Of a stretch of 8,164 nucleotides of DNA, positions 1 to 8,164 are shown in pieces. Position numbers and translations under genes: made by a program. The DNA lies in IMG/VR virus record IMGVR_UViG_2609459850_000003; one strand, written 5' to 3'. The notes beneath the pieces were generated by a model that searched no databases, had not been told where the DNA came from, and saw only the letters and a program-made list of their open reading frames with translations. Each line of letters begins with the position of its first letter. Position 1 is the stretch's first letter. Source of the stretch: a virus. Its lineage: Duplodnaviria; Heunggongvirae; Uroviricota; Caudoviricetes.

Positions 1-362
<362 letters not shown>

Positions 363-2753: not shown

Positions 2754-3467
2754 CTAAGAAAATCTTGATAAATATTGGCGCGGAGGCACACCAAAATATC
2801 CTCTAAAAACACTTACAAAATATGATGCATTGTCATACCCGCATATTCCCGCCACCTTGCCGACAGTATGGTTACTGTAGATCAATAATCTTTGCGCCAT
2901 CATCATTCGTTCTTCAAGAATTAATTTACTAAACGATAACCCTTCGTCTTTTAATTTTCTTTTTAACAAACTCTCGCTCATATATAATCTTGAAGATATA
3001 TCACAAAGTCTCCATGACGCTGAGATATCCGAGTGAATAATAGCCTTAACTTTACAACCTAAGCTATTAAGACTTCCGAACAAAAAACTTTGCACTATTT
3101 TCTCTGAAGATAAGACAGCAAGACATGCAAGTGATATTTGATTTCTAACTACATCCACGGTTTTGCTATCACAATTCAAGCATGCAACCAAGTTCCTTAA
3201 CAAGGAAAAATCTTCACATTCTACTATCAAGTATGACGGATAAAACCTTCTTACAGAAAAAGGTGAGAGTGTGTAGTTTTTAAAGAAATCATTAACTGTT
3301 TTCTCCTCAACATCTACGATCATTAGATGATCTGTATTTGACGAAAAAAGATCTTTTAAATTGTATTCAATGAGGACAGCATTTCCTTTTTTAAACAAAA
3401 TATCTTCTTTACCAATTCGGACACCAAACGAGTTCAACACCAAAATGATAGAACATATGTATGGCAT
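2754..3467 (-). CDS. AraC/XylS-family transcriptional regulator (AppY/EnvY/Rns-like), AT-rich xenogeneic gene
   Basis: ATG at 3467 with RBS AGGTGG 5 nt upstream (the ORF-track start at 3476 is GTG). The C-terminal roughly 100 aa carry the double helix-turn-helix signature of the AraC family (...SFSKLILEERMMMAQRLLIYSNHTVGKVAGICGYDNASYFVSVFRGYFGVPPRQY). The gene and about 400 bp upstream are visibly AT-rich. Confidence 0.85.
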   Translation of the reverse strand: MPYICSIILVLNSFGVRIGKEDILFKKGNAVLIEYNLKDLFSSNTDHLMIVDVEEKTVNDFFKNYTLSPFSVRRFYPSYLIVECEDFSLLRNLVACLNCDSKTVDVVRNQISLACLAVLSSEKIVQSFLFGSLNSLGCKVKAIIHSDISASWRLCDISSRLYMSESLLKRKLKDEGLSFSKLILEERMMMAQRLLIYSNHTVGKVAGICGYDNASYFVSVFRGYFGVPPRQYLSRFS

Positions 3468-3873
3468 ATTATCCACCTGATATCATTGGGGTTACACCAG
3501 GTAAGTATAGGTGGAAAATCAATATTCGCCAGTTCAACAATAAGGAAAATCTCATTGCATCACAACTATAAAACCATGTGTTTAACTCACAAAAAACAAA
3601 TCATTAAACTAATCTGTTATATTATAATAGCTGCGTGCAATAATAATATTATATGCTCTTAATATTCACTTGAAATATCTTCATATAAAAACAGATTGAA
3701 TAAAATCTTTTGGGGCTGGTATGTTTACCAACATTAAATTGCATCTCAATGTTTTCTTTAGCGTGAACAGGATTTTTATACAAACTGACACTATGGGCAT
3801 CATAGCGTAGTTTTTACGATTGTAAATATCCTGCATACAGGAACTCATCACTTTCAGATGATATCGCATACAG

Positions 3874-4833
3874 TTAATTCACCATCAGTCTTAGAGCCAG
3901 TTCTTCCGGATAGGGATCGAAGTAATTCTGTGTAAGCAAGTAATCATTAGGATACTCACCCAGATAATGCTTCAGCAGAGTCAACGGCGCAAGAAGAGGC
4001 AATGTGCCAAAGCGATAGTTAAGTATAACCTCGCTCAACTCTTTACGCTGGCGTGTACTTAAGTAATTACTAAAATACCCCTGTATATGCATCAGCACAT
4101 TCGTGTGATTTTTACGTGATGCTGGTTTTCTGAGAATCGCCATCAGATTATCACGATACACCTCAAAGTATGATTCAAGGTCCGCCCACTCGTGTATTGC
4201 AGCCACAAATGGTCCCATATCTTTATAGCCTGCCTGGCTATGCGCCAACAACTGAAGCTTATAACGACTATGAAAAGCTAATAACTCTCTTCTTGATAAT
4301 TTCTCCTTGTAAAGATGATTGAGCTCATGCAAAGCAAAAACTCTTTCAATAAAATTCTCACGAAGCACTGGATCATGTAATCGCCCATCCTCTTCAACCG
4401 GTAGCCAGGAAAACTTTTCCATCAAAGTGCTCGTAAATAGTCCCACTCCATCTTTACGACCTCGATTACCATTTTCATCATAGACACGCACGCGCTCCAT
4501 GCCACAGCTGGGAGATTTAGCACAAACCACAAACCCCGATACATCCTTTAATTTGTCCATATAAGAACGACTAAACTCTGTCATTCTCTCTGTCACATCC
4601 TCATTCTGGTCGTGGCTGAAACACATCCGTATATTTCCTTGCTTCGAGCGCACAAGTCGTAGAGCAGGACGCGGAACTGGCAGCCCTATAGCCATTTCCG
4701 GACATACTGGTCTGAATGTTACCCATTCCACTAATTTGTCCATTAAAAAGTCATCTCTTTTGTGACCACCATCAAAACGAACAGCAGAACCGCCCAAACA
4801 ACCGCTGATCCCAATCACAGGTTTTTTTATCAT
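3874..4833 (-). CDS. DUF523 (TudS-like [4Fe-4S] thionucleobase desulfidase) fused to DUF1722 (YbgA-like); RudS-like
   Basis: 319-aa ORF; ATG at 4833 with strong RBS GGGGGAGG. N-terminus MIKKPVIGISGCLGGSAVRFDGGHK...PVCPE...KSPSCG matches the recalled DUF523/TudS pattern with three conserved Cys positioned as Fe-S ligands. The C-terminal roughly 170 aa are helical, consistent with DUF1722. The domain call is from recalled signatures, not a search. Confidence 0.75.
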   Translation of the reverse strand: MIKKPVIGISGCLGGSAVRFDGGHKRDDFLMDKLVEWVTFRPVCPEMAIGLPVPRPALRLVRSKQGNIRMCFSHDQNEDVTERMTEFSRSYMDKLKDVSGFVVCAKSPSCGMERVRVYDENGNRGRKDGVGLFTSTLMEKFSWLPVEEDGRLHDPVLRENFIERVFALHELNHLYKEKLSRRELLAFHSRYKLQLLAHSQAGYKDMGPFVAAIHEWADLESYFEVYRDNLMAILRKPASRKNHTNVLMHIQGYFSNYLSTRQRKELSEVILNYRFGTLPLLAPLTLLKHYLGEYPNDYLLTQNYFDPYPEELALRLMVN

Positions 4834-5025
4834 TTCCTCCCCCTTGACTAATTCATTAACACATAAACTTTGTAGTGCACGGACTAAATTGCCTTTCTGG
4901 CTTCATCACTGACAATTTTTCTGTTATTGACTATTCCTAATATAGTAGGAAAGTTCTTTAAGTGATCGGTCGTACTCATCTATCTTTCATACTTACTCTC
5001 AACTATCAAAAGTACAGGATTTATT
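4834..5025. promoter_or_regulatory. Divergent intergenic region between the DUF523-DUF1722 gene (-) and the lipocalin gene (+); presumed promoters and operators
   Basis: 192-bp AT-rich spacer between divergently oriented start codons. Contains TTGACT-like hexamers (for example 4927-4932) and an imperfect direct repeat TGACAAT (4910-4916) / TGACTAT (4928-4934). No promoter could be assigned confidently by eye. Confidence 0.35.
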
Positions 5026-5550
5026 ATGAAGTTATGGCCTGTGTTGACTGGCATTGCACTCTCTTTCACTCTTATAGCATGTAAGGCCCCGACACCACCT
5101 AAAGGTGTGCAGCCGATTACAAATTTTGACGCCAACCGCTACCTCGGAAAATGGTATGAAATAGCTCGCCTCGAGAACTGGTTCGAACGTGGTCTGGAAC
5201 AGGTCAGCGCTACTTATGAAAAACGGAACGACGGAGGGATTCGCGTACTTAACCGTGGATACGATCCAACGAAAAACAAATGGAGCGAGAGCGAAGGTAA
5301 AGCATACTTTACTGGAGATACTAAAACTGCAGCGTTGAAAGTTTCGTTTTTTGGCCCCTTCTATGGTGGCTATAATGTAATCAAACTGGATGATGAGTAT
5401 AAGTATGCTCTTGTCAGTGGTCCGAACAGAGAATACCTATGGATTCTGGCAAGGACCCAAACTATTCCAGATAATGTAAAAGCAGACTATGTGCGTACCG
5501 CTCAAAAGTTGGGATTCAATGTCAATGAACTATTATGGGTTAAACAATAA
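5026..5550 (+). CDS. Bacterial lipocalin (Blc-like outer-membrane lipoprotein)
   Basis: 174-aa ORF; ATG at 5026 with CAGGA 6 nt upstream. Lipoprotein signal with lipobox L-I-A-C. Lipocalin SCR1 motif NFDANRYLGKWYEIARLENWFERG and downstream KVSFFGPFYGGYNVIKLDDEY...YLWILART closely parallel E. coli Blc as recalled. Confidence 0.9.
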   Translation: MKLWPVLTGIALSFTLIACKAPTPPKGVQPITNFDANRYLGKWYEIARLENWFERGLEQVSATYEKRNDGGIRVLNRGYDPTKNKWSESEGKAYFTGDTKTAALKVSFFGPFYGGYNVIKLDDEYKYALVSGPNREYLWILARTQTIPDNVKADYVRTAQKLGFNVNELLWVKQ

Positions 5551-5578: not shown

Positions 5579-5605
5579 AAAAAAACCAGCCTTTGGGGAG
5601 GCTGG
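5579..5605 (-). terminator. Rho-independent terminator on the minus strand, candidate tR' of the phage late operon
   Basis: Stem CCAGCCT (5586-5592) / AGGCTGG (5599-5605) with a 6-nt loop, followed on the minus strand by seven U (A-run 5579-5585 on plus). About 100 nt downstream of the Q stop, matching the lambdoid pR'-tR' architecture. No T-run follows on the plus strand, so it is not a good terminator for the lipocalin gene. Confidence 0.6.
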
Positions 5606-5705
5606 CTAAATCAGGAAACAAGCTGTTATATGATAATAACTACGTTGCGATTCCAACATTTAAAATGTTAGACTAATGAAAATCAGACAGCAACTTTTCC
5701 TTTAA
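5606..5705 (-). promoter_or_regulatory. Putative late promoter pR' / qut region between Q and the tR'-like terminator
   Basis: Position is immediately downstream of Q and upstream of the intrinsic terminator. Contains a 7-1-7 palindrome AACATTT-a-AAATGTT (5655-5669) and several -10-like hexamers on the minus strand (TATAAC, TTAAAT). Exact -35/-10 not assignable by eye. Confidence 0.3.
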
Positions 5706-6083
5706 TTATTTCGAACAATCAGCATCCATCTCCAATCGGAGATCCAACACCATCAGCATGCCCTCCACTACGCCCTCAGCTTTCTGGAGCATCCTGCCAA
5801 CCCAACAATCAGATCGCCCATGCTTACGTGCAAGCGCCATAAAAGTCATGCCGCCGACATAATAGTCCACCAATAAATCATGTAAATCGCTGTTGTTTTT
5901 TTTCAGGCGAGCCATACATTCACAAATGATCATCGCGTCATCGTCACAGCATTGCGGACGAGATCTTACTTTTGAAGGAATTAATCCCTTAAAACCGGCG
6001 GCAATGGACGACCAGGTCACATCTTCATGATTATTAGCCGCCCATGCCCCCCAACGCTCAAGAACCATCTGAATATCACGCAT
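5706..6083 (-). CDS. Phage late-gene antitermination protein Q (phage 82/21 QuuD-like type)
   Basis: 125 aa from ATG at 6083 with RBS GGAG 7 nt upstream (the ORF-track start at 6098 is TTG). Sequence [24 protein letters not shown]...[32 protein letters not shown] closely resembles DLP12 QuuD as recalled, including the Cys cluster. Located immediately upstream of the late promoter/terminator and lysis genes. Confidence 0.8.
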
Positions 6084-6100
6084 CAACTTACTCCACAAAA

Positions 6101-7150
6101 TTAGGCCAGCACACCAATTGCCAGCGCGCGATCGATAAATCGAAAAATCAGCTCCAGTTGGGAGCCATACTTCTCTTCAAATGCCACGGTATCCGTATGC
6201 AACTCGTCGTGATGCTTTCTGCACAAAGGCAAAACAAAGAGATCATGTGCTTTGGTTCCCATTCCGCCCTGCCCGTGACCAATCAGATGATGCGGATCGT
6301 CGGCTGGCATACCGCAGCAAGCACACGGCTGTGTCTTAACCCAGCGTGTGTATTTCTCCTTAACCCACCGGTGACGTTTAGGCAGCTTCATGAAAGATTC
6401 CGGAGACTCTGGATCAACGGTGATGCTTACCACCGTCTTTTCCTGTGATGGGTTTTGTTGCTGGTGGGCGTGAGGCAACGGTGCAAGATTTTTTGTGCGC
6501 TGTTTCAATATGCTGGTGGCGGTCTGCTCTCCCGGTACGATGTCGCTTTCGCGGTACACCGAGCAGATTTTTTCCGCTGGTAATCCCAGCGAGCGACGTA
6601 ATACCGCTTCCGGTAGCGCGTCCGCCAGCTGATTGCGGACCGCCCACCAGGATAATTCAGCCAGAGATAATTCACGCTCCTGCGTACCGCTTATTGCGTG
6701 ACCGATGACGTCAATCATCCATGCTGACAGGTTTTGATGAGCAAGTTGCTCGAGTGATTCGGATGTCTGGTCACGCAGCTGGTTGTCGCAGTGCCAGCAC
6801 AACACCATTGCGCCGGTACCATATCGGTGAATAACGGTTTCGCTGTGATGATAATCGCCGTGTGGCCACTGGCAGGATTTAATATGGCGCAACAGCCAGT
6901 CAGACAATGCACCAGCACCACCAGCAGCACGAATTACCCGTGCGTTACTGAAAAACGGCAGCAATGTTTTGTCTTCCACCAGCGGCTGGCGAACGGCAGG
7001 AACGACCCCGGACGGCAGATTACGCATGCTTTTCGGTTCCGGCTCCACCAGTACCCGGGTATTGTGGAATACCGGCATGGATTCACGGCCCGGCTTAACG
7101 ACCACCAGCCCGAGTTCCGGTACCAGAACAGGTCGAAGTAATACCCGCAC
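6101..7150 (-). CDS. YdfU-like prophage protein (349 aa) with C-terminal Cys/His-rich YbcO-like putative zinc-binding/nuclease motif
   Basis: GTG start at 7150 preceded by GGAGG, with the upstream gene's TAA lying between the RBS and the start (coupled). Same length and genomic position (immediately upstream of Q) as Qin YdfU as recalled. C-terminus ...[45 protein letters not shown] resembles the small nin-region protein YbcO (DUF1364). Confidence 0.75.
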
Positions 7151-7151
7151 G

Positions 7152-7430
7152 TTACCTCCAGATGCGTTGCTGGAATGTACGGGACGGACGCGGTGGGCGT
7201 TCGGAGTAAGGCAATCTGACTGAGATTATCCAGTGACGGTAGTCGAGACTAAGGGCTTTCTTAACCTCGTATCCGCGCCTGCGGTAACACTGAATTATCC
7301 ATTCAGCCTGCTCTTCAGTGCATGGAGGGTGTTGGAACCATTCAGACTTGAATGCGTGAGAATACCGCTCGTGCGTGCAGACAAGAACGGGCGAATTATC
7401 AGAATTGTAATATTTTACGTTGCGTGCCAT
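7152..7430 (-). CDS. Hypothetical phage nin-region protein (92 aa)
   Basis: ATG at 7430 with GGAG 7 nt upstream. Its stop is 1 nt from the YdfU-like start, so the two are likely co-translated. Contains Cys/His residues (LVCTHERYSHAF...HPPCTEE). No family recognised. Confidence 0.55.
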   Translation of the reverse strand: MARNVKYYNSDNSPVLVCTHERYSHAFKSEWFQHPPCTEEQAEWIIQCYRRRGYEVKKALSLDYRHWIISVRLPYSERPPRPSRTFQQRIWR

Positions 7431-7830: not shown

Positions 7831-8164
7831 GGTAATGACTCCAACTTACTGATAGTGTTTTATGTTCAGATAATGCCCGATGACTTTGTCATGCAGCTCC
7901 ACCGATTTTGAGAACGACAGCGACTTCCGTCCCAGCCGTGCCAGGTGCTGCCTCAGATTCAGGTTATGCCGCTCAATTCGCTGCGTATATCGCTTGCTGA
8001 TTACGTGCAGCTTTCCCTTCAGGCGGGATTCATACAGCGGCCAGCCATCCGTCATCCATATCACCACGTCAAAGGGTGACAGCAGGCTCATAAGACGCCC
8101 CAGCGTCGCCATAGTGCGTTCACCGAATACGTGCGCAACAACCGTCTTCCGGAGCCTGTCATAC
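7831..8164 (-). mobile_element. IS1 insertion sequence, terminal 334 bp (continues beyond window end)
   Basis: Terminal inverted repeat ggtaatgactccaacttactgatagtg begins at 7831. The following sequence encodes the InsB C-terminus on the minus strand and matches IS1 as recalled nearly base for base. Confidence 0.9.
7846..8164 (-). CDS. insB: IS1 transposase InsB, C-terminal part (5' end outside window)
   Basis: Translation ...[88 protein letters not shown] is the canonical InsB C-terminus. TAA stop at 7846-7848 sits just inside the IS1 terminal repeat. The frame stays open to the window edge. Confidence 0.9.

Follow-up and report, generated by a model that had tools for sequence, protein, structure and literature searches.

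What does the 349-residue protein encoded directly upstream of the antiterminator gene Q do for this phage? A preliminary description of the 8,164-nucleotide stretch of viral DNA analyzed here (IMG/VR record IMGVR_UViG_2609459850_000003; hereafter the window), made from the letters alone, called the protein YdfU-like and saw in its C-terminus a Cys/His motif resembling YbcO, joined to an N-terminal region of about 270 residues of no assigned function. YdfU was listed among the uncharacterised E. coli proteins in 2024 (PMC11551758) and is part of the E. coli y-ome. The gene lies on the minus strand, which the preliminary description had left unnamed; the C-terminal motif is present, at residues 276–318, and Q follows directly, as described. 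The gene and its neighbours are listed below.

7152–7430, minus strand: upstream ORF of 92 residues (phrog_1212, E = 5.4e-36)
6101–7150, minus strand: ydfU, 349 codons and a TAA stop (6101–6103), from the ORF listing
5706–6098, minus strand: antiterminator Q (PF06530, E = 8e-51; start placed at 6083 by PGAP)
5026–5550, plus strand: lipocalin
3874–4833, minus strand: YbgA-family protein with 2-thiouracil desulfurase and DUF1722 domains
2754–3476, minus strand: AraC-type regulator

On sequence grounds, the ORF is the ydfU ortholog of a Qin-type lambdoid E. coli prophage. The protein is 92% identical to K-12 YdfU (b1560, Qin) over all 349 residues, so that "YdfU-like" can be sharpened to YdfU itself, and the gene order rem, 92-residue ORF, ydfU, Q is common to the window and K-12; full-length identity and synteny together mark the two genes as orthologs. 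Several E. coli chromosomes match the 2.2-kb stretch around ydfU with 100% identity; RefSeq annotates the gene there as "ydfU: DUF968 domain-containing protein", with rem, a hypothetical protein of 92 residues and an antiterminator Q as neighbours, within a Qin-type prophage. The likeness to K-12 ends downstream, where K-12 has the 250-residue ydfT as its Q, whereas the Q of the window is of the PF06530 type with 125–130 residues; its first possible start lies 2 nt past the ydfU stop and the start chosen by NCBI PGAP 17 nt past it. Beyond Q, the lipocalin, YbgA and AraC genes of the window lie between Q and the lysis cassette (2754–5550), a place taken by cspB/cspF in K-12 Qin and by stx in Stx phages.

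Several other features of the window were recorded. About 100 nt downstream of Q, a strong terminator-like hairpin (5584–5607, minus strand) with a 9-bp stem followed by a T-run sits at the place of a tR'-type terminator of lambda, which Q would override. In a promoter and terminator scan, counts were near those expected from shuffled sequence, and no signal was peculiar to ydfU. The best-matching genomes lack positions 1–362, as would fit an IS insertion in the source strain. The short ORF at 33–215 (plus strand) is one that we take to be the tail fragment of an IS5-family transposase, and that at 7846–8112 (minus strand) is presumably an IS1 InsB-like transposase fragment.

The start codon of ydfU is a GTG at 7148–7150 on the minus strand, in the context TGGAGGTAACGTG, and K-12 ydfU has the same start context, GGAGGTAACGTG. 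Read along the minus strand, the junction consists of GGAGG (7155–7159), the TAA of the 92-residue ORF (7152–7154), a single spacer base (7151) and the GTG, exactly as the preliminary description had it, and the arrangement is identical in K-12. Such a geometry is compatible with translational coupling of the two genes. In K-12 MG1655, an intact, 90%-identical 92-residue ORF lies between rem and ydfU (6307–6585 of locus L006, minus strand); it is unannotated in NC_000913.3, and PGAP annotates its counterpart in other strains. The viable phage HannyBb carries a 98.8%-identical YdfU homolog (3519–4496 of locus L009) that is annotated from an internal ATG, M25. We favour the GTG because residues 1–24 are conserved in the homologs from Serratia, Vibrio and P1, with L13, G14, K19 and E23 invariant; the HannyBb annotation, which drops these 24 residues, is likely a start-codon mis-call. 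Four plus-strand ORFs overlap ydfU (6044–6448, 6445–6708, 6791–7141 and 6969–7223) and are taken as shadow ORFs because they have no family matches. The ydfU frame itself is under purifying selection, with dN/dS values of 0.14 against K-12 and 0.22 against SfII.

The way the architecture is distributed refutes the idea that the 349-residue ORF is an artefactual or lineage-specific frameshift fusion of two genes, a kind of fusion that the preliminary description had named as a possible objection, and we give it practically no credence. It would be favoured by the many short fragments in protein databases and by PHROG families that match one part only: phrog_11007 covers residues 2–135, phrog_23141 residues 279–349 and phrog_1588, made of 132-residue proteins, residues 237–341. 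Against this, 173 of 185 phage records, which range from Escherichia to Vibrio phages and P1, cover at least 80% of YdfU at a single place, and single ORFs of 320–350 residues with both domains occur in phages of Escherichia, Shigella, Salmonella, Klebsiella, Yersinia, Serratia and Vibrio and in P1. Moreover, both halves are under purifying selection, and the region joining them keeps the reading frame, its variation consisting of indels of whole codons. Since full-length homologs span this range, ydfU is regarded as an old, stable two-domain gene. Homologs are also found in Stx-converting phages, and a search of 1.84 billion cluster representatives gave 2775 related clusters at E ≤ 0.001, with many fragments among the best-ranked. 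Six database proteins (P0321, P0339, P0366, P0385, P0386 and P0440) join the N-terminal part of YdfU to tail fibre, tail-tip J, capsid or portal sequences; we considered a mobile N-domain module and read these odd joins instead as prophage decay or deletion, or misassembly.

YdfU is a member of the DUF968 family: residues 160–346 match Pfam PF06147 over profile positions 1–171 with 257.8 bits, for a cut-off of 27.8 (E = 6.5e-77), and PHROG 96 ("HNH endonuclease") matches the protein end to end (E = 1.2e-173). The YbcO resemblance proposed at the outset is real and remote. BLASTP aligns YdfU with YbcO at 31% identity over 61 residues (E = 8e-5), while the Pfam YbcO model (PF07102, formerly DUF1364), against which K-12 YbcO itself scores 144.8 bits, has no match in YdfU even at E ≤ 1; YdfU is therefore a relative of the YbcO family and not a member. 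It also falls below the cut-offs of two other nuclease models, with 15.2 bits against 26.9 for RecA_dep_nuc (PF16786) and 24.2 bits against 26.6 for HNHc_6 (PF16784), the latter match being limited to the HNH part (residues 271–328 against profile positions 123–184); the NinB/Orf-like N-terminal domain of HNHc_6 proteins is absent from YdfU. An NCBIfam scan gave no match. YdfU shares with the His-Me finger (HNH) superfamily the β-hairpin plus α-helix fold, with a predicted general-base His on strand β1 and a metal-binding His/Asn on the helix. The link itself is published: Jablonska et al. 2017 placed DUF968 (YdfU) and DUF1364 (YbcO) together in His-Me-finger "group 7" and suggested for this group a part in recombination, repair or replication (PMC5714182).

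An AlphaFold2 model was built on a 46-sequence alignment of diverse homologs, and conservation was counted over 85 non-redundant homologs. The full-length model has a mean pLDDT of 78.9 and divides the protein into the following parts.

6566–7150, minus strand: N-terminal folded domain, residues 1–195, with a small β subdomain, an HNH-like ββα core and a helical bundle
6773–6886, minus strand: Cys/His core of the N-domain, residues 89–126, with putative Zn ligands C93, H101, C118 and C121
6413–6565, minus strand: linker, residues 196–246, predicted disordered and of variable length
6104–6412, minus strand: C-terminal His-Me-finger (HNH) nuclease domain, residues 247–349, with a basic lead-in
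6197–6325, minus strand: HNH core motif C276–H318, located by translation, conservation and Gp16 spacing

This layout differs from the one first proposed, in that the supposedly featureless N-terminal region of about 270 residues consists of a folded domain of about 195 residues and a disordered linker of about 50, and the C-terminal domain measures about 100 residues and not 70. The limits of the Pfam DUF968 model do not coincide with these domains: the model begins in the last two helices of the N-domain, crosses the linker and ends with the HNH domain.

The C-terminal domain is the best-defined part of the model, with residues 260–349 mostly near or above a pLDDT of 90. A zinc site is predicted at C276, C279, C310 and H313, with H288 as the general base and H314 and H318, together with D303, as metal ligands. 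The active-site positions are kept in most of the 85 homologs (H288 in 78, D303 in 83, H314 and H318 in 77 each), and with dN/dS values of 0.04–0.07 this is the most constrained part of YdfU, a pattern expected of an active site. Only about half of the homologs keep the structural zinc ligands C279, C310 and position 313, which the Vibrio clade lacks. In structural comparisons, the highest score was obtained with P1 Ref (PDB 3plw; 8.5, 2.9 Å over 75 residues), followed by the HNH domains of IscB (6.8) and Cap5 (6.5) and by YbcO (PDB 3g27; 6.1, 2.3 Å over 69 of 81 residues); Foldseek found nothing significant for YdfU in the PDB. Sequence comparisons also set YbcO behind Ref and Gp16. In hhalign, the YdfU family profile gave E = 3.5e-5 with Ref, 2.5e-4 with Gp16 and 7e-4 with YbcO, and BLASTP against ΦNM1 Gp16 gave 37% identity over 59 residues (E = 6e-9). 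When the PDB was searched, phmmer with the single YdfU protein returned nothing relevant, and YbcO was the sole sequence found by the family profile, at E = 0.37. The C-terminal domain is thus a His-Me finger of the Ref/HNHc_6/YbcO type, nearer to Ref and Gp16 than to YbcO.

Both of these nearer relatives are characterised enzymes. Ref is an HNH endonuclease that depends on RecA and cuts D-loops made by RecA (PMC4330346, PMC3973344), and Gp16 is a nickase that is expressed early, is stimulated by RecA and is required for the phage to replicate efficiently (PMC12817073). Gp16, which belongs to HNHc_6, is the best pairwise sequence match to the HNH core of YdfU and itself passes the Pfam DUF968 cut-off with 29.1 bits. 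The zinc and catalytic residues of its C145xxC148...H157...C181xxH184-H185...H189 motif are spaced identically in YdfU, where H288, H314 and H318 align with H157, H185 and H189. The genes of Gp16 and YdfU alike belong to the early region of their phages, in the vicinity of RusA and replication genes. YbcO, from DLP12 and phage 82, is a single-domain protein of 96 residues that has A-H where YdfU has H-H and D62 at the position of H318. Outside the HNH domain, Ref has a disordered, basic N-terminus of 76 residues (PMC4330346) where YdfU has its folded 195-residue domain, and Gp16 begins with a NinB/Orf-like domain (PMC12817073; Curtis et al. 2014, PMC4118853), whereas the N-domain of YdfU is HNH-like, a different fold.

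The linker between the two YdfU domains has pLDDT values below 50 at residues 196–208 and 223–246, and deletions of 18–21 residues occur in it in the SfII and Serratia homologs. Modelled alone, the N-domain reaches a pLDDT of 87.7 and a pTM of 0.72, and its Cys/His core forms a β-hairpin (residues 105–118) followed by a helix (119–125). Its putative zinc ligands are better conserved among the 85 homologs than those of the C-domain, with C93 in 84, C or H at position 101 in 77, C118 in 83 and H or C at position 121 in 83. Position 102, the expected site of the general base, is variable (D, H, S and others), and no conserved catalytic His is found. The C-Q-x6-C spacing is that of the YbcO zinc knuckle, and a second, non-significant BLAST segment aligns YdfU 93–118 with Gp16 148–181 in the HNH register. 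Structural comparisons of the N-domain returned ScoMcrA (5.3; 12.8 Å over 85 residues), IscB (5.2; 13.1 Å over 86), EcoKMcrA (4.5), HNH-Cascade (4.2), GVE2 HNH (4.1), Cap5 (4.0) and Ref (3.8; 2.8 Å over 58). From the predicted structure and the ligand conservation, the core of this domain is probably a degenerate second HNH fold. We grade it as probable and not proven because profile comparisons gave no significant support: in a search for internal duplication at sequence level, hhalign yielded P = 0.23 for the N-domain against the C-domain profile, and the N-domain profile gave P = 0.14 against YbcO, though in the expected CQ...C register, and P = 0.56 against Ref; when 26 N-domain sequences were scanned with Pfam at E ≤ 10, no HNH family turned up. 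This reading of the N-domain was not found in the literature searched.

One full-length homolog bears on whether catalysis matters to the family as a whole. PdcB of P1 (3905–4948 of locus L003) is 26% identical to YdfU (E = 5e-38), has the same two-domain layout and is encoded directly upstream of the late-gene activator lpa. Its C-domain carries the replacements H288Y, H314Q and H318E, whereas the CQ...C...CWHHDN motif of its N-domain is intact; judged from these substitutions, PdcB is probably inactive as a nuclease. Catalysis thus seems dispensable in parts of the YdfU family, and the preservation of the N-domain signature despite the loss of H288, H314 and H318 suggests that the N-domain has a function of its own. 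P1 carries an active HNH enzyme, Ref, besides this probably dead YdfU-type HNH.

Such a homolog invites the view that YdfU acts mainly as a non-catalytic DNA- or protein-binding factor, such as a regulator or a recombination mediator, with the HNH fold serving as a zinc-finger-like module. The architecture and N-domain signature retained by PdcB speak for it, as do the better-kept zinc ligands of the N-domain, the constant position of the gene directly before a late regulator, Q or Lpa, and the behaviour of Gp16, in which zinc-finger mutants lost toxicity and catalytic-His mutants were merely weakened (PMC12817073). What weighs against it is that, outside a PdcB-like minority, the catalytic His residues and D303 are kept at the frequencies given above and that the strongest constraint falls on the C-domain. 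We therefore consider this view unlikely for YdfU itself, though it deserves some weight.

Taking YdfU as a nuclease leaves the question of which process it serves. PHROG and several phage annotations say simply "HNH endonuclease", and phage HNH genes are often homing or terminase-associated (PMC12817073, introduction), so a selfish homing-type or terminase-linked packaging enzyme, unconnected with recombination or replication, might be supposed. In many lambdoid phages, however, ydfU occupies a fixed site upstream of Q, far from the terminase genes, and it is not inside another gene; a Pfam scan found no homing-type sequence-specific DNA-binding modules, and in structure and sequence YdfU stands closest to Ref, Gp16 and YbcO and not to I-HmuI or gp74-type enzymes. 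A homing or packaging function is very improbable.

A role for the bacterium is somewhat easier to imagine, with YdfU a toxic prophage nuclease that the host retains to defend itself or to exclude phages, in the manner of abortive infection. Upstream of ydfU there is a very strong Rho-dependent terminator, to which the silencing of toxic prophage genes is ascribed (PMC9160355), the toxin genes hokD and relBE are neighbours, and purifying selection acts on ydfU in cryptic prophages too. The locus is also common in the host: a 2.2-kb query spanning Q, ydfU, the 92-residue ORF and rem is matched in 5221 of the 5426 complete E. coli genomes, at least 80% of it being present in 384. Nevertheless, the PADLOC defence models give no match for YdfU, no immunity partner is evident, and the same gene stands at the standard nin position in viable temperate phages, which makes a defensive function improbable.

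The explanation that we prefer, and regard with moderate confidence as the right one, is that ydfU is a Qin-type nin-region gene whose product joins a non-catalytic N-domain, through a linker, to a Ref/HNHc_6/YbcO-type nuclease for recombination or replication intermediates. Its starting points, which the analysis shows, are the identity of the gene, the layout of the domains, the similarity in fold, the conserved active site and purifying selection, and from them we infer the nuclease activity, its substrate, its RecA dependence and the role of the N-domain. As a delayed-early gene transcribed toward Q, ydfU would be expressed in lytic growth. The N-domain of about 195 residues, with its zinc-stabilised HNH-like core, would recognise a DNA structure or a partner, and the flexible linker of about 50 residues would tether the C-terminal HNH domain to it. 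In these last 100 or so residues, C276, C279, C310 and H313 would hold the structural zinc, H288 would act as general base, and H314 and H318, with D303, would hold a divalent metal with which DNA is nicked or cleaved at intermediates of recombination or replication. The genomic contexts, RusA-KilA-YdfU-Q in SfII, O-YdfU-RusA-Q in Serratia BZS1 and pdcB-lpa in P1, appear to support work in DNA metabolism ahead of late-gene activation.

The most specific prediction of this explanation is stimulation by RecA: both characterised relatives, Ref and Gp16, depend on RecA, and by analogy YdfU may be stimulated in the same way. Against the parallel, YdfU stays below the RecA_dep_nuc cut-off and has neither the long, basic disordered N-terminus of Ref nor the NinB-like domain of Gp16. 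We also entertain, as a speculative extension that is rather unlikely to hold in full, a tandem arrangement in which a dead, zinc-bound N-terminal HNH copy recognises the target for the active C-terminal copy; YdfU would then be the lambdoid-phage counterpart of Ref and Gp16 and would nick DNA of the host or the phage at RecA-bound intermediates early in lytic growth, and PdcB an inactivated derivative that keeps the recognition function.

The ydfU gene, the DUF968 family and the link to YbcO were already published, and their classification is unchanged by our analysis. What it adds is the ranking of Ref and Gp16 before YbcO, a map of the domains and an N-domain that is likely a dead HNH. YdfU-type genes are widespread in lambdoid prophages, and the tie to Ref and Gp16 offers a concrete hypothesis for them, that of YdfU as a RecA-stimulated nickase, by analogy with these two enzymes. 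A tandem of a dead and a live HNH domain, if true, would account for the large N-terminal region of YdfU.
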